In this document: piece by piece, positions 12,957-18,096 of the stretch
Numbering within the stretch: position 1 is the stretch's first letter
Layout of the letters: every line of letters begins with the position of its first letter
Sequence record: NC_041936.1
DNA length: 64,000 bases
Source of the DNA: Escherichia phage ECD7
Strand: one strand, 5' to 3'
Notes under the pieces: generated by a model
The model's input: the letters and a program-made list of their open reading frames with translations, nothing else
What the model was told of the DNA's origin: nothing
Databases searched by the model: none
Program-made: the position numbers and the translations under genes

Positions 12957-13210
12957 AGTTTCCTCAACCAGTTATTAAAGCGAGTAAACCATGATGCTTT
13001 TCGTGCTTCTTTTACTTTATGTGCACGTAAACCACTGAAACACCATTCATAATCATCACTGAAACATGATTCAACAGGAACACCCGCATTTCGTAGTTCT
13101 CTGGTCTTTATCATGAATCCTTGACATAAGGGGCGACCTTCAACAATAATAGGAAGTTTAACTTTTTCCATGAAAGTATACCCAGCACGGTCAATAATTT
13201 CAATTTTCAT
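12953..13210 (-). CDS. hypothetical protein
   Basis: ORF track 85 aa. Confidence 0.45.
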   Translation of the reverse strand: MKIEIIDRAGYTFMEKVKLPIIVEGRPLCQGFMIKTRELRNAGVPVESCFSDDYEWCFSGLRAHKVKEARKASWFTRFNNWLRKL

Positions 13211-13454
13211 TTACATTATCTCCATAGATCTTTCCAGCAATATCAATTTCACCAGCGCGAACATCTAGGATAAGATGCGGTAGGTGTATGCAGTTTTCCC
13301 ACCCTACGCGCTTCATTTCTTCTACGGTAACGTAAGCCCATCCGTTCGCTGTAATAAAGTCTACTTCAACCTTGAGAGGAAAGAAAGACTTTTCTATGTC
13401 TTCGAATCCGACAATATGTTTTGTTGTTGAATATGGAATATATCCGGTGATCAT
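13200..13454 (-). CDS. hypothetical protein
   Basis: ORF track 84 aa. Confidence 0.45.
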   Translation of the reverse strand: MITGYIPYSTTKHIVGFEDIEKSFFPLKVEVDFITANGWAYVTVEEMKRVGWENCIHLPHLILDVRAGEIDIAGKIYGDNVNEN

Positions 13455-13885
13455 TTTGTGATCTCCTTATACTCAACACACCATAAGCGGGTAGCCCATG
13501 ATAAACGCTCATAACGCTGGCAGAAATCGGACCATAGATATTGTGCACCGTTCGGCATAGTTGAAATATGCGTTTTCTCTCCAACTTTCACGAAAGAAGT
13601 ATTCGATTTTGTGATCTCGACCGGAGTATACCCGAAAGCGGGTTCCAAGCCAACATCTGAACTAAATGCCAATTTAACAGAATTTGTTTTTCTGACCGCT
13701 GTCCGGTTTCCTTCTGGGTATAGCACAGCAGGTTTAGCGCCTAAGCGGATAAACTCAGTGTTTTTAATAAACAGAATATCATGATAACCGTCATATTCTG
13801 ACACTTCCATAGTAACAGGAAAATCGACATGTGCTAAACCCGGTAGATCTCGCATATCATGAAAGGTCGCCATCAACTTTTTCAT
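13451..13885 (-). CDS. hypothetical protein (paralog of 13896..14141)
   Basis: ORF track 144 aa; shared motif ITKSN.SFV.VGE.THI.TM...QY.WS.FC..YE.LSWA. Confidence 0.5.
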   Translation of the reverse strand: MKKLMATFHDMRDLPGLAHVDFPVTMEVSEYDGYHDILFIKNTEFIRLGAKPAVLYPEGNRTAVRKTNSVKLAFSSDVGLEPAFGYTPVEITKSNTSFVKVGEKTHISTMPNGAQYLWSDFCQRYERLSWATRLWCVEYKEITK

Positions 13886-13895
13886 TCTATATTCC

Positions 13896-14141
13896 TCACT
13901 CTTCTGTAATTACTTCATATTCAATTTTCCATACATCAATCGCCCAGCTTAAAAGCTCGTACGATTTACAGAAAGATGACCAAATATACTGTTTTCCGTA
14001 CATCGTTGTTATGTGTGTATGCTCGCCAACTTCAACGAAAGACATATTTGACTTTGTGATAACTATAGGAATGCAACCGAAAGGAGGCGGTATTACTGAT
14101 TCGTTGGTCTTCATTCTATATTCCTCACTCTTCGGTTTCAT
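13896..14141 (-). CDS. hypothetical protein (paralog of 13451..13885)
   Basis: ORF track 81 aa. Confidence 0.45.
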   Translation of the reverse strand: MKPKSEEYRMKTNESVIPPPFGCIPIVITKSNMSFVEVGEHTHITTMYGKQYIWSSFCKSYELLSWAIDVWKIEYEVITEE

Positions 14142-14322
14142 TTCTTTTATATGGTACTATAACCGGATTAATACAGCAAGCACCAATTACGTTATGAGCA
14201 CCACAATTTAAGCATTTATAATCATGGAACTTATTAAGGAATCGCCCGAACTCATAACCTACTAGCGCCGCGTGTACTTGAGTCTCGATCTCATCCATAT
14301 CAGCCAATGTTTTAACCTTCAT
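14125..14322 (-). CDS. hypothetical Cys-rich protein
   Basis: ORF 14125..14361 trimmed to the Met behind GAGGATTATATT; CLNCGAHNVIGACC. Confidence 0.4.
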   Translation of the reverse strand: MKVKTLADMDEIETQVHAALVGYEFGRFLNKFHDYKCLNCGAHNVIGACCINPVIVPYKRNETEE

Positions 14323-14332
14323 AATATAATCC

Positions 14333-14623
14333 TCAAATACTGGTTTTGCGAAGATGGTCATTACATGCTTTTAATGCATCAGTTGCTGTGTCATAACGAG
14401 TATTATCATAGCACCAATAACCATCTGTCAACTGATAAATTAATCCATCCTTTTTAGCTTCGATGAAAGATAACTCTTTGAAAGTTTCTACTTTCTTTGC
14501 TGATACTCCACGGTCACGGCGCTTATAGAGTTTAGCTAAAATGCGTTCAGCTTGTTCCTCTTTATCACCAGACAGATCCCAAATAATGTTGCGGATATGT
14601 TTGATTAATTGTTCAGTGGTCAT
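14333..14623 (-). CDS. hypothetical protein
   Basis: ORF track 96 aa; promoter at 14653-14680. Confidence 0.45.
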   Translation of the reverse strand: MTTEQLIKHIRNIIWDLSGDKEEQAERILAKLYKRRDRGVSAKKVETFKELSFIEAKKDGLIYQLTDGYWCYDNTRYDTATDALKACNDHLRKTSI

Positions 14624-14652
14624 CTTTGATTCTCCTTAGTTGGTATGTGTGC

Positions 14653-14680
14653 ATTATAGCATTGTGATTATCTTTGTCAA
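14653..14680 (-). promoter_or_regulatory. early promoter TTGACA-16-TATAAT
   Basis: Immediately downstream of the 14684-14717 terminator; SD AAGGAGAATCAAAG. Confidence 0.55.
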
Positions 14681-14683
14681 CAC

Positions 14684-14717
14684 CCAAAAACAAAAAAGGC
14701 TATCCCGAAGGATAGCC
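14684..14717 (-). terminator. rho-independent terminator after the Gly-rich gene
   Basis: Hairpin GGCTATCCTTCGGGATAGCC + TTTTTTGTTTTT on the minus strand. Confidence 0.6.
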
Positions 14718-14724
14718 CATAAAA

Positions 14725-15501
14725 TTACACGCGAGCGCCGTAGATCGTGCCTACTTTATCCCAGCGAGGGGCATTACCAGTAACAGCCTTACCAGCAGCA
14801 CCACCGTTATATTCTGTACCGTTACCTTGAGTATTACATCTTCCTCCAGCAGCACCGACGTCACCACCAGCACCACCTGTATATGCACTAAGAGACCCCT
14901 CACCAACAGATCCTTTACCCGGAGCGGAAATAGTGCCGGCGGTTGCACCAGCACTCATATTAGAGGAAGACCCACCAGCACCAAATGGACGACCGCCGCC
15001 ACCGCCAAAGGATAGTTTACCCCTGTTACCACCGCCACCGCCACCGCCGCCACCAGCGATTGCACCGTTATTCGTAATTCGTAGACGTGTACCGATAGCG
15101 TTATTGATTGCGTTTCCACCAGCAGCGCCAGCAGCGTTACTACCACCATTACCCCCACGTCCGTAGACAGTCACACCGGCGTTAATGATCAATGTTACAT
15201 ATTCGTTTGTTAACGAGCTAGGGAAGTCAAGACAAGGAACGCCAGTAGATTGGGAAACAATATTACCAGTGATAGTAATTACTACAGGAGTAGATCCTTG
15301 TGCTTTCATCCAGTTAATAAGAGTGTCTTTATTGTAAGAGTTACTAGCACCAATGCTATAATGAATCTCTTTAGAGCGTCCGACCATTGCCGACATATAC
15401 GCCGGACGACCTAAGCGTACAGCTTGCATTGCGGCGCTCATCCACCGTTGACCAGTCTCGGACACCGCAGATGATCCTACCCATCCAGAAGATATTGCCA
15501 T
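14725..15501 (-). CDS. glycine-rich protein (folded N-terminal part plus about 140-aa Gly/Ala/Ser low-complexity tail)
   Basis: ORF track 258 aa; runs such as GGGGGGGGGNRGKLSFGGGGG; bracketed by hairpin terminators on both sides. Confidence 0.55.
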   Translation of the reverse strand: MAISSGWVGSSAVSETGQRWMSAAMQAVRLGRPAYMSAMVGRSKEIHYSIGASNSYNKDTLINWMKAQGSTPVVITITGNIVSQSTGVPCLDFPSSLTNEYVTLIINAGVTVYGRGGNGGSNAAGAAGGNAINNAIGTRLRITNNGAIAGGGGGGGGGNRGKLSFGGGGGRPFGAGGSSSNMSAGATAGTISAPGKGSVGEGSLSAYTGGAGGDVGAAGGRCNTQGNGTEYNGGAAGKAVTGNAPRWDKVGTIYGARV

Positions 15502-15514
15502 AAAATTTCCTCAC

Positions 15515-15537
15515 AAGAAAAGCCCCAATTAAGGGGC
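15515..15537 (-). terminator. hairpin with short U-run upstream of the Gly-rich gene (weak terminator or attenuator)
   Basis: GCCCC-TTAATT-GGGGC + TTTTCTTG, 20 nt before the 15501 ATG. Confidence 0.35.
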
Positions 15538-15555
15538 ATTGATTGATAATATTAC

Positions 15556-15777
15556 TTAGATGACCTCTGCTTCACCATCCAGGAAGAAAGACCATGTTTT
15601 GTTAGGATAGCGAAGCGCCCATGATTCAGCAGTTTTAACACCAGATTCGAACAATTGACGACTGGTTACTTTAGCCATACCATCTTCGATGGCAACGTTT
15701 TCAATAATCATCGGGTAATTAGCGCCACGCATGAAACCGAAACCAGCGGAAGATTTGATAATTTTAACAGTTGCCAT
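15556..15777 (-). CDS. hypothetical protein
   Basis: ORF track 73 aa; promoter at 15820-15848. Confidence 0.45.
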   Translation of the reverse strand: MATVKIIKSSAGFGFMRGANYPMIIENVAIEDGMAKVTSRQLFESGVKTAESWALRYPNKTWSFFLDGEAEVI

Positions 15778-15819
15778 TTTTTGATTCTCCTAGAAAGTGT
15801 ATCTCGTTTCGATGTGTGC

Positions 15820-15848
15820 ATTATGCAATAACACCGGATCGCTGTCAA
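15820..15848 (-). promoter_or_regulatory. early promoter TTGACA-17-CATAAT
   Basis: Anchored between the 15867 stop and the 15777 start; same leader as other cassettes. Confidence 0.5.
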
Positions 15849-15866
15849 CACTTTCTAAGAAAAATT

Positions 15867-16151
15867 TTAAATTAATCGAATATAGCCCAGAATTTCAGCA
15901 CTTTTAGCCAGGTCTAAAACTTCCCATTCAAGGTCGCCGTAGTCATAATTTGCAACCATCAACTGACCATTTTTCATGCAGCAATCATGAGAGAAAATTT
16001 GCCCCGCATAAACTACGATAGTGATAAACTTTCCTGATTCTGGCGGTGTGGAAGACAAAGCGACCATATGACCATTCAGCTTAGTCACCAGTGATGGAAC
16101 AATAAAATTCGGGCTTACCTTAATACCGTTAAATTCGTTTGTGTCTTTCAT
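15867..16151 (-). CDS. hypothetical protein
   Basis: ORF track 94 aa. Confidence 0.45.
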   Translation of the reverse strand: MKDTNEFNGIKVSPNFIVPSLVTKLNGHMVALSSTPPESGKFITIVVYAGQIFSHDCCMKNGQLMVANYDYGDLEWEVLDLAKSAEILGYIRLI

Positions 16152-16498
16152 GCCAGACCTCGCAAAACACTAATAGCATAATCATGCTGGTTATTCATAA
16201 TATCAATTGCATTGTGATAACGAGCTAAACCATCAAGGATAAATTCTTGTTTATCCTGTTTCAGTTTGGTATCACGCGCAGCCATAAGAGCATCGAGAAC
16301 AGGTCCAAAGTGATTATCTAATTCATCTTCGGTTGCAATGTTTCCTATTGCCTCGTCGATCCGTGATTCTAATGCTTGCTTTTCGTTGATCACTTGCTGG
16401 GTATATTCCAACACATCAAGAATATCGCGGGTAACGTCGCCATGATAAGGTATTCCCGCATGAAGGTGATCAATTAGTCGTTGAATGTCAATGTTCAT
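16148..16498 (-). CDS. hypothetical protein
   Basis: ORF track 116 aa. Confidence 0.45.
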   Translation of the reverse strand: MNIDIQRLIDHLHAGIPYHGDVTRDILDVLEYTQQVINEKQALESRIDEAIGNIATEDELDNHFGPVLDALMAARDTKLKQDKQEFILDGLARYHNAIDIMNNQHDYAISVLRGLA

Positions 16499-16833
16499 TT
16501 GTAACCCTCCTCTGAAAGCACATCCCAGATCGTTGCGTCAAGATGCATTAAATTCCACATAATAGAATCATAACTACCGAAGCCAGAAGTAAAAATTACA
16601 TCACACTGGCGATAAGTCTTATGAAAATCGGTAGCGGTCTCTGCATCAATAGGCATATCGTCACCGGAAAGCACCAGACATTTAAGAATCATAACTCTGT
16701 TAGCCGTTGGCGCTTGCTTAGTCTTTTCAGCATATTTTTCGATGATCCGTTTTGCCTTTTCTTCTTTGATACGTCCAGACCAAATCCGGTTTCGGTATTG
16801 ATTCATAATAATTTCAATCACATCATTTTGCAT
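16495..16833 (-). CDS. hypothetical protein
   Basis: ORF track 112 aa. Confidence 0.45.
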   Translation of the reverse strand: MQNDVIEIIMNQYRNRIWSGRIKEEKAKRIIEKYAEKTKQAPTANRVMILKCLVLSGDDMPIDAETATDFHKTYRQCDVIFTSGFGSYDSIMWNLMHLDATIWDVLSEEGYK

Positions 16834-17032
16834 TCTTCACGGTCTCCATAATTGTTTTGTAAGCCAGTTTAAGATGATCACCGAAAAACTTTGCGGTGTT
16901 ACCCTTCGGATCGCGGAGCATGGTTTCTACGATCTCATCGTCAGTAACAATTTCTCCCTTCTTTGCTGCATGTTCTACCATATACTTCAAAGTTTCTTCG
17001 GAGGCAAGTGCTGCGGCTACTGGATTAATCAT
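16823..17032 (-). CDS. hypothetical protein
   Basis: ORF track 69 aa; SD AAGGAGAACCAAA; promoter at 17062-17090. Confidence 0.4.
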   Translation of the reverse strand: MINPVAAALASEETLKYMVEHAAKKGEIVTDDEIVETMLRDPKGNTAKFFGDHLKLAYKTIMETVKNAK

Positions 17033-17061
17033 TTTGGTTCTCCTTTGTTGTCGATGTGTGC

Positions 17062-17090
17062 ATTATGCTATACCCTATTCCGGTTGTCAA
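17062..17090 (-). promoter_or_regulatory. early promoter TTGACA-17-CATAAT
   Basis: Downstream of the 17094-17125 terminator; leader CAACAAAGGAGAACCAAA-ATG. Confidence 0.5.
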
Positions 17091-17093
17091 CAC

Positions 17094-17125
17094 CTAAAAA
17101 CGAAAAAGCCACCCTTTCGGATGGC
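17094..17125 (-). terminator. rho-independent terminator
   Basis: Hairpin GCCATCCGAAAGGGTGGC + TTTTTCGTTTTT on the minus strand. Confidence 0.6.
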
Positions 17126-17359
17126 TTTTGATTATATTTTATTCACGTCCATTTGTATAGTAGTGTTTGAATCGACCTTTGCTAAACTCGTTAAACATAG
17201 TAACCAATTTACCATCCCTTTCCAATGATAACCCTTCCTCGTCTTAGATGGGTCTTCCGATTCGGCAGTAATTGAACACGCGAAAGTATGAGGAAGCCAA
17301 ATGGTTGTGTTAATGCTAGTATTCTTTTACTTCTGGTATGTATCCCAATGTGACTAACA

Positions 17360-17758
17360 TTAAGCCAATCGAGTGAGTTTATAAATTGTTTTAAAGCATA
17401 GAGCTTTGATATCGTCTAAAACGCTCTGTAACGAGCTATCAACATCATTATAAATCTCACTAGCCATTTGCGTTAACTCTTGCAAATAGGCAATTTCGCT
17501 CATCTCCTTGCGGACGACCAACGTTGGCTGATAACGACCAGTGATCCCAATATTGGTTTCAGTGAAATCATCAACCAATTCTTGCATTTCAAGATAGAAC
17601 TCTTCTAGAGCCTTATGTTTTGCATAAGATCCAGGACCAGTTACCCCAAAATGCGCAGAATGCATATAAGTAACACTCATCAGACATTCACCGATAAAGC
17701 GGTCAACTTTATTAGCTTTCCCCTCTTCGGACGTCTTTCGAAAATCACTGAATTTCAT
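17360..17758 (-). CDS. Dps/ferritin-like protein (putative)
   Basis: ORF 17360..17857 trimmed to MKFSDF; HSAHFGVTGPGSYAKH...EEFYLEMQELVDDFTE has the His-x12-His and Asp/Glu spacing of a Dps ferroxidase site. Confidence 0.45.
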   Translation of the reverse strand: MKFSDFRKTSEEGKANKVDRFIGECLMSVTYMHSAHFGVTGPGSYAKHKALEEFYLEMQELVDDFTETNIGITGRYQPTLVVRKEMSEIAYLQELTQMASEIYNDVDSSLQSVLDDIKALCFKTIYKLTRLA

Positions 17759-18055: not shown

Positions 18056-18096
18056 CCCCCAGATTAAAAATATTCAGTTATATTTATAATCTGGGG
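18056..18096 (-). promoter_or_regulatory. 10-bp stem hairpin (CCCCAGATTA..TAATCTGGGG) containing a late-promoter TATAAATA box (18081-18088) and overlapping the SD of the rI-like gene
   Basis: Inverted repeat between the tk stop and the 18047 start; TATAAATA read on the minus strand; SD GGGGGA lies in the 3' stem arm. Confidence 0.5.

Follow-up and report, generated by a model that had tools for sequence, protein, structure and literature searches.

The g38 locus

The window analysed here is a 64,000 nt stretch of the Escherichia phage ECD7 genome (NC_041936.1). [quoted passage not shown] A putative Shine–Dalgarno element read from the sequence, GAGG (15509–15512, minus strand), lies 7 nt 5′ of the ATG.

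Two small early ORFs flank g38 on the same strand. The upstream ORF (15556–15777; 73 aa) is a homologue of RB49 ORF080c, belongs to PHROG 7345 (function unknown) and is probably co-transcribed with g38; the downstream ORF (14333–14623; 96 aa) is a homologue of RB49 ORF078c and belongs to PHROG 14129 (function unknown). No informative family was found for these neighbouring small ORFs, and no tRNA or Rfam family was detected anywhere within the 64-kb window.

A preliminary description, made from the sequence alone, had noted about 115 ordinary residues followed by about 140 rich in Gly, Ala, Ser and Asn. The ORF and its composition confirm this division: the four amino acids make up 37 % of residues 1–115 and 65 % of residues 116–258 (Gly 34 %, Ala 15 %), with uninterrupted runs of nine glycines at 150–158 and five at 166–170. 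The same description called the codons locally GC-rich, which holds in so far as g38 has the highest GC content of all 1265 sliding windows of 777 bp (0.505, versus 0.404 for the window), but is true only of the GGN and GCN codons. The excess exists because of these Gly and Ala codons, and the amino-acid composition accounts for it in full, giving an expectation of 0.509 with the codon usage of the window; GC3 is ordinary (0.341, versus 0.365±0.054). A foreign origin of g38 was considered on compositional grounds and rejected, as the GC content equals the amino-acid expectation and GC3 is typical. Nor is the frame an artefact of low-complexity, GC-rich DNA lacking an orthologue: orthologues of gp38 are abundant in database searches, and the 37 synonymous versus nine non-synonymous codon differences from RB49 g38 indicate that the gene is functional and under purifying selection.

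Identity and predicted fold of gp38

Both Pfam families that define the gp38 adhesins (PF05268 and PF21721) are matched above their curated thresholds, and together over the full length of the protein. The GP38 match covers residues 45–258 and the whole profile (positions 1–218 of 218; 8.5e-73, 245.2 bits, cut-off 25), and the Gp38_N match covers residues 1–40 (3.9e-18, 65.6 bits, cut-off 25). The protein also matches PHROG 2056, ‘tail fiber protein; host specificity’ (5e-99), and aligns over residues 1–256 with the S16 adhesin structure (PDB 6F45_D; 4.6e-52), as well as with the receptor-binding domain of PP01 gp38 (9v85). On this sequence evidence, the ORF at 14725–15501 is a gp38 adhesin, a full-length member of a known family. 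The earlier guess that the product might be virion-associated, with a fibre or adhesin protein among the options, was thus right, and the accompanying remark that none of those options was an obvious fit was wrong, given that the corresponding gene is annotated as gene 38 in RB49, Phi1 and JSE.

An AlphaFold (AF2) model built with 40 homologues has a pLDDT of 93 and a pTM of 0.84, and its glycine-rich half is confidently predicted too (pLDDT 88–98). Foldseek matched the model to 6F45_D (E=6e-23, TM 0.82/0.85) and to 9v85_C (TM 0.76/0.88), and to no other PDB entry with E<1. Profile searches and disorder prediction had been proposed as checks; the profile searches returned gp38 families, the pLDDT values predict an ordered glycine-rich region, and the model predicts that what had been taken for a glycine-rich tail is a folded polyglycine-II sandwich domain.

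The S16 adhesin provides the structural reference. Its N-terminal helical attachment domain plugs three tryptophans into the gp37 trimer, its middle is a five-ring beta-helix, and two long excursions carry ten glycine-rich motifs that form a three-layer polyglycine-II sandwich, the distal hypervariable loops of which set the host range (PMC6851490). Across the 40 homologues of the window protein, W7 is invariant and W20 nearly so; the third docking position is Tyr35, aligned with W36 of S16. Invariant or nearly invariant glycine columns lie at 114–129, 150–156, 166–170, 174–177, 195–197, 210–219 and 234–242, and are separated by variable stretches at about 159–165, 178–192, 198–208 and 221–231, the alternation typical of the family. 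The G150–G158 run corresponds to polyglycine-II helix 3 of S16, described as 151-GGGGGGGG-158 (PMC6851490).

Transcription signals around g38

The preliminary description had the gene insulated by a hairpin with a U-run about 20 nt upstream and a strong terminator downstream, and lacking the early promoter that its neighbours have. All three observations stand. The downstream element, GGGCTATCC-TTCG-GGATAGCC followed by a T-run (14687–14718, minus strand; hairpin 14718–14697), is a strong intrinsic terminator with a 9-bp stem and a UUCG loop, 7 nt past the g38 stop codon; it folds with −15.3 kcal/mol (z −4.7), which none of 200 shuffled sequences equalled. The upstream element found in the terminator scan, a G/C stem-loop GCCCC-TTAATT-GGGGC followed by TTTTCTT (15515–15537, minus strand; stem 15537–15522), ends its stem 21 nt 5′ of the ATG and folds only weakly (−11.5 kcal/mol, z −2.4), and is probably an attenuator. 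This stem-loop is nearly identical in six phages with g38 at the same site (filled-site phages), with one substitution in RB49 and a 3-nt insertion in Makalu3, and is annotated as a terminator in GEC-3S.

No sigma70-like site is present in the 54-nt spacer before the g38 ATG. The nearest upstream promoter on the strand is an early promoter, TTGACA-17-CATAAT (15820–15848, minus strand; 11/12 match), and the gene that follows g38 has a sigma70 early promoter of its own, TTGACA-16-TATAAT (14653–14680, minus strand), with a 12/12 match and an extended TG, which together with the terminator forms a cassette of the promoter-early stem-loop (PeSL) type. The nearest T4-type late promoter motif on the strand, TATAAATA (18081–18088, minus strand), lies 2.6 kb upstream of g38, in front of rI. 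It is the only exact copy on the g38 strand, and neither the motif nor a one-mismatch variant occurs within 690 nt upstream of g38. The site equals Pl:48756 of RB49, the only late promoter predicted upstream of g38 on this strand (Nolan et al. 2006), and between it and g38 lie a strong terminator (17129–17104; −16.6 kcal/mol) and the weak hairpin described above. A dedicated late promoter for g38 is rejected on present evidence, as the motif scan and the RB49 predictions of Nolan et al. agree. RB49 has neither MotA nor middle promoters.

Compared with shuffled sequence, the 13.5–17.5 kb region holds 5 terminator-like sites versus 3.1±1.9, and 18 promoter-like sites versus 11±3.3. This enrichment is modest; the case for the signals rests on individual strong sites. 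The Shine–Dalgarno sequence was considered as a possible mark of a non-early gene. In g38 it is GAGG, and in its neighbours GGAG, the RegB cleavage motif; GGAG precedes 29 of the 81 early-strand genes and four of the 25 late-side genes (Fisher P=0.08), and 27 of the early-strand genes have GAGG, a common form there.

A displaced gene in RB49-like phages

Positions 13000–17500 of the window are 93–97.5 % identical to RB49, JSE, Phi1 and other RB49-like phages (genus Krischvirus). The RB49 record has a CDS at the same position and between the same neighbours, annotated as gene 38 with the note ‘similar to T2 and RB69 gp38 adhesin’; an orthologue at this locus, which the preliminary description had suggested looking for, is likewise annotated as gene 38 in Phi1 and JSE. 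The usual synteny, which does not define the protein and in which g38 directly follows the 3′ end of g37 in the late fibre operon, does not hold at this locus, where early ORFs surround g38 and it is read from the early strand. The RB49 genes g34–g37 occupy 145–154.7 kb (g37 151.7–154.7 kb) and are followed by ORF251w and the holin gene t, and g38 lies on the opposite strand at 45.4–46.1 kb, about 55 kb from g37.

The displacement of RB49 g38 from g37 has already been stated (PMC3157838), Trojet et al. are a source on its odd position, and a 2026 preprint (10.64898/2026.04.02.716166) finds gp37 and gp38 to be some 55 kb apart in five Krischviruses. A 2025 paper reported gp38 away from the holin gene in Krischviruses FL37 and FL38, and beside it in FL04, FL15 and FL20 (PMC12032242). 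The position of g38 in the window is thus an already known exception of this lineage.

Boundaries of the insert and the empty site

Comparison with relatives delimits the g38 segment to the base. The segment replaced in relatives spans 14647–15555 (minus strand) and measures 909 bp here versus 38 bp in the Krischviruses examined that have no g38 at the locus. The 909 bp comprise a spacer, the weak hairpin, g38, the strong terminator and a different copy of the promoter. The 38-bp sequence of the empty site, TTG-TTGACA-CGGGGAGAAATCCCCG-TATAAT-GATAACC, directly follows the ORF080c stop codon and is itself a PeSL, an early promoter with a G/C stem-loop inside its spacer. Junctions were aligned in three loci, L009 (KMB43), L010 (LF73P4) and L011 (kvi), in which the ORF080c and ORF078c homologues are 61 bp apart; homology to the window breaks off precisely where the ORF080c homologue has its stop codon, and sets in again at ATACCAACTAAGGAG/ATACCAACTAAGGAGAATCAAA, in the promoter/5′UTR. 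Among the matches listed, at least 11 Krischvirus records (LF73P4, KMB43, kvi, MIZ5, G2248, G5211, G2494, FL15, FL20, Skers and UPWr_E1) match upstream of g38 only from this stop codon onwards.

Arbiol et al. (2010, PMC2839356) proposed that units in the hyperplastic regions of RB49 and Phi1 are inserted, deleted and replaced with PeSLs as the substrate; that paper neither mentions g38 nor lists a PeSL by these ORF numbers. The defining combination of a strong sigma70 promoter and a stem-loop, in repeated copies, is present at the downstream flank of g38; at the upstream flank the GCCCC/GGGGC stem-loop stands alone. The downstream promoter/5′UTR unit shares GTGTTGACA..YATAATGCACACAT..AGGAGAAYCAAA with copies at about 15780–15850 and 17030–17130. 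Indel or replacement polymorphism with its junctions at a PeSL, the other mark of such elements, is seen in the exchange of 909 bp for 38 bp. The apparent insulation of g38 is the boundary of a 909-bp, PeSL-bounded insert between two small early genes.

The displaced g38 and the type of fibre tip

The fibre genes of the empty-site phages, Skers and UPWr_E1 aside, indicate what accompanies the absence of the displaced gene. In eight of them (LF73P4, KMB43, kvi, MIZ5, FL15, FL20, G2494 and G5211), the distal end of g37 and a g38 stand directly before ORF251w and t; the 79-aa ORF that follows g38 in LF73P4 is 96 % identical to RB49 ORF251w. MIZ4, FL04 and phiS also have a g37 tip and g38 before ORF251w and t, and in these three the displaced site is outside the matches listed. 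G2248 represents a third configuration, with an empty site and a g37 with an S74 domain followed by three ORFs of about 100 aa; no gp38 adjoins its g37, and the three ORFs have no informative family. The presence of the displaced g38 therefore appears, from these sequences, to track the type of fibre tip, and the two types of gp38 are less than 50 % identical in the attachment domain.

The g37-tip/g38 module of these Krischviruses has 92–93 % DNA identity to Tequatrovirus phages. This homologous stretch runs as far as the end of g38. RB49-like sequence sets in again 13 nt ahead of the position of the RB49 g37 stop codon, so that a remnant of the RB49-type g37 end (AAAAAGAATTAA) is retained behind the incoming g38. 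This pattern suggests that the ‘canonical’ arrangement was re-acquired from Tequatrovirus in these Krischviruses, and that the old displaced g38, mismatched to the new tip, would then have been lost; the direction of these events is inferred. Filled-site phages hardly vary in the flanks or in residues 1–106 of gp38; their differences are strong in the hypervariable segments and lie almost only there. The loops of GEC-3S and E26 (YYSPFSQMRLTF and CNIRGQGSEYNGG) are identical to loops of Tequatrovirus-type g38, which indicates that loop segments are still being exchanged between the displaced g38 and the shared pool of gp38 alleles.

Interpretation of the locus

Taken as a whole, the locus is very probably explained as the g38 of an RB49-like phage, encoding an adhesin of the T2/T6/S16 type at a displaced, PeSL-bounded locus inside an early hyperplastic region; no observation speaks against the identity. 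Identity, fold, locus, junctions and signals come from the present analysis, and the docking mechanism and the receptors are carried over from the literature. By analogy with S16, one gp38 monomer would dock by its N-terminal helical domain on the tip of the gp37 trimer, after cleavage of the C-terminal S74 chaperone domain of gp37; two long excursions from the central beta-helix would stack their glycine-rich motifs into a three-layer polyglycine-II sandwich, and the hypervariable loops at its distal end would bind the host receptor. The g37 of ECD7 lies outside the window, and the type of gp37 tip was checked in the relative RB49, where a Peptidase_S74 domain at residues 871–930 of 979 is as expected for a fibre capped by gp38 and distinguishes this gp37 from one with a T4-type needle tip.

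RB49 gp38 has been described as a receptor-binding protein that recognises OmpA and certain O antigens, and its mutations E230K/Y231S change host range (Golomidova et al. 2022, PMC9569957); the preprint 10.64898/2026.04.02.716166 also assigns it to OmpA. Because the window protein is nearly identical to RB49 gp38, its predicted receptors are OmpA on rough E. coli and certain O antigens. Both E230 and Y231 are conserved in it, and five of its nine substitutions relative to RB49 (162, 164, 183, 184 and 190) map to variable stretches of the receptor-binding domain, and D214 has conserved glycines on either side.

The name gp38 invites a different reading, in which the product is a tail-fibre assembly chaperone of the T4 type and not part of the virion. 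The evidence for it consists of legacy names in GenBank (‘distal long tail fiber assembly catalyst’ in the RB49, JSE and GEC-3S records), against which stand the full-length matches to adhesin families and solved adhesin structures, the RB49 note naming ‘T2 and RB69 gp38 adhesin’ and the mapping of RB49 host-range mutations in gp38 (PMC9569957). T4 gp38 is, moreover, very different in sequence from S16 gp38 (PMC6851490). We regard this reading as already effectively refuted and give it very little probability. Even less credible is a secreted or bacteriocin-like effector with the glycine-rich region as a disordered translocation domain. The preliminary description had pointed this way through a likeness to colicins, pyocins and microcins, and the Gly/Ser/Asn-rich composition does fit such a protein; however, the Pfam, PHROG and PDB matches are to gp38 adhesins only, and the region is predicted to be ordered and superposes on the polyglycine-II sandwich.

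It could also be argued that the displaced g38 is a decaying or redundant relic and that the working adhesin is encoded elsewhere, as the gene sits among non-essential early ORFs without a late promoter and some Krischviruses have no g38 at the displaced site. However, tblastn found a single gp38 place per record in all 60 of the sampled rows, RB49-type genomes included, and no adhesin gene follows g37 in RB49, where ORF251w and t come next. The intact frame under purifying selection, an N-terminal part of 106 residues that hardly varies among filled-site phages, against diversifying hypervariable segments, and the RB49 host-range mutants that map in the product of the displaced gene likewise speak for a working adhesin. 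Of the phages without the displaced g38, nine (the eight empty-site phages and MIZ4, whose displaced site is outside the matches listed) have a different g37 tip with an adjacent g38, and G2248 has another arrangement. That the gene is a relic is accordingly very unlikely.

For the working adhesin, the simplest reading of the signals is that g38 is most likely expressed by read-through from an early promoter, because it has neither a dedicated promoter nor, within 2.6 kb, a late one. In this model a bicistronic ORF080c–g38 transcript would start at the early promoter at 15848–15820, pass the weak upstream hairpin, which would act as an attenuator and leave a low level of g38 transcription, and end at the strong terminator after g38; the late promoter of rI may make a further contribution. 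PeSL stem-loops are reported to be effective terminators (PMC2839356), and read-through into g38 could therefore be low. Low expression would suffice, as only about six copies are needed per virion. A literature search for Krischvirus transcriptomes and virion proteomes found none.

A stronger version holds that in RB49-type phages g38, the host-range determinant, is a mobile, PeSL-bounded cassette, gained, lost or swapped by PeSL recombination (perhaps as mini-circles), uncoupled from the fibre operon and expressed early by terminator read-through instead of from a gp55-dependent late promoter. We think this version unlikely; if it were true, a virion adhesin would be made as an ‘early’ protein.

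The identity of g38 and its displaced locus are already known, and the finding is real but ordinary. What is added here are the junctions at base level, the tracking of fibre-tip type and the lack of a late promoter within 2.6 kb. gp38 is the main host-range determinant in most T-even-like phages, and a target of current work on receptor prediction and phage engineering; the window contributes only one new allele, nine substitutions from RB49 gp38. What interest is left concerns the timing of expression of a virion protein in an early, terminator-insulated slot, the cassette-like behaviour of its gene, and whether adhesins are more easily exchanged from such a slot. Answers on timing and exchange would be of interest to specialists in the T4 family and would leave the general picture unchanged.

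Comparison with known systems

The closest named system is RB49 gp38 (AAL15128.2), which, like the gp38 of Phi1, JSE, Cognac49 and Whisky49, has the same locus, flanks and length; the upstream hairpin, terminator and promoter of the RB49 locus are the same as here. RB49 gp38 is identical at 249 of 258 residues (96.5 %), the nine substitutions being K4S, A5S, S108A, R162K, V164S, G183S, S184A, S190T and N214D. The closest public proteins are 97–98 % identical to the window gp38, and the best phage record 97.7 %. Judged by sequence, the window g38 represents a new allele and not a new gene.

At greater distance, S16 gp38 (6F45 chain D; 43 % identity) has the three-domain architecture that is predicted for the window protein, with a glycine run at the matching position, but its gene adjoins g37, W36 stands where the window protein has Tyr35, and the receptor loops differ. 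The gp38 proteins of T2, T6 and PP01 (Tequatrovirus; PDB 9v85), about 50–55 % identical, belong to the same family and share the modular layout of glycine motifs and hypervariable segments; their genes, unlike the one described here, occupy the canonical g37–g38–t position with late-operon expression, and their receptors are FadL/OmpF, Tsx and OmpC. T4 gp38 shares only the gene name, being a non-virion chaperone of very different sequence (PMC6851490, PMC12032242), and the ‘assembly catalyst’ labels on records of the RB49 group are a carry-over from it.

The insert itself is best compared with the PeSL cassettes of RB49 and Phi1, which likewise consist of a near-consensus sigma70 promoter and an adjacent stem-loop, are repeated in the hyperplastic region and flank units that are indel-polymorphic between close relatives. 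The g38 insert differs from them in that its cargo is a virion adhesin and not an ORFan, and in that its upstream side has a stem-loop without a promoter.

Tail-fibre tip configurations

Comparison of the 909 bp g38 segment of ECD7 (window 14647-15555) with loci L005 and L009-L012, the last four from phages KMB43, LF73P4, kvi and G2248, shows that the fibre tips of Krischviruses fall into at least three configurations. In configuration A, a displaced g38 occurs together with an RB49-type g37. Configuration B has g38 adjoining the g37 tip and an empty displaced site; the g37 tip and g38 are 92-93% identical at the DNA level to those of Tequatrovirus, and the incoming g38 is followed by a 13 nt remnant of the RB49-type g37 end. 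In configuration C, represented by G2248, the displaced site is empty and no gp38 is encoded beside g37. Both g38 locations were touched on in passing in a 2025 paper, and we found no description in the literature of the junctions or of the co-variation of g38 location with tip type.

The place of g38 in G2248, between g37 with its S74 chaperone domain and the homologue of ORF251w, is filled by three consecutive ORFs of approximately 100 aa downstream of g37 (L012:3233-4139), none of which had a Pfam or PHROG family. These ORFs could be an adhesin or chaperone set of a new kind; the absence of gp38 was seen at the displaced site and beside g37.

For some displaced Krischvirus g38 alleles, those of GEC-3S and E26 (L003 and L007), the hypervariable loops YYSPFSQMRLTF and CNIRGQGSEYNGG are identical to those of a Tequatrovirus-type g38 (L005:2480-3262). 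This identity indicates that loop segments are swapped both between genera and between loci.

Sequence context of g38

Three promoter/5′UTR units on the minus strand (window 14620-14720, 15780-15850 and 17030-17130), two of them preceded by a stem-loop, have in common GTGTTGACA..(C/T)ATAATGCACACAT..AGGAGAAYCAAA; they are copies of the PeSL element, approximately 1.2 kb apart, around g38. Nearby, approximately 200 bp (13908-14109) are present in the window, E26 and Makalu and missing from RB49, kaaroe and OZ035808. A 27 nt direct repeat (13881-13907 and 14110-14136; copies 96% identical) flanks the segment, and since a paralogous region is found at the C-terminus of both neighbouring ORFs (13451-13885 and 13896-14141), 13881-14136 looks like the site of a tandem partial duplication, or of a deletion.

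The antisense and out-of-frame ORFs overlapping g38, including 14933-15166 (+), are Pro-rich (PPPPPPPPPPA...), Val-rich or Leu-rich, and were rejected as genes, being mirror artefacts of GGN/GCN codon runs.

Comparison with S16 and T4 gp38

Of the three tryptophans by which S16 gp38 docks, the third is W36, whereas RB49-type alleles have Tyr at this position (g38 codon 35, window 15397-15399), possibly reflecting a gp37 tip of different shape. Trp is kept there in the majority of 40 aligned homologues, and in the Tequatrovirus-type Krischvirus allele. In several public records g38 is a 'hypothetical protein' or 'tail assembly protein'; AY343333 (RB49), EU863408 (JSE) and HE978309 (GEC-3S) give 'distal long tail fiber assembly catalyst'. 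The 'assembly catalyst' label is a carry-over from T4 gp38, a chaperone whose function differs from that of RB49-type gp38.
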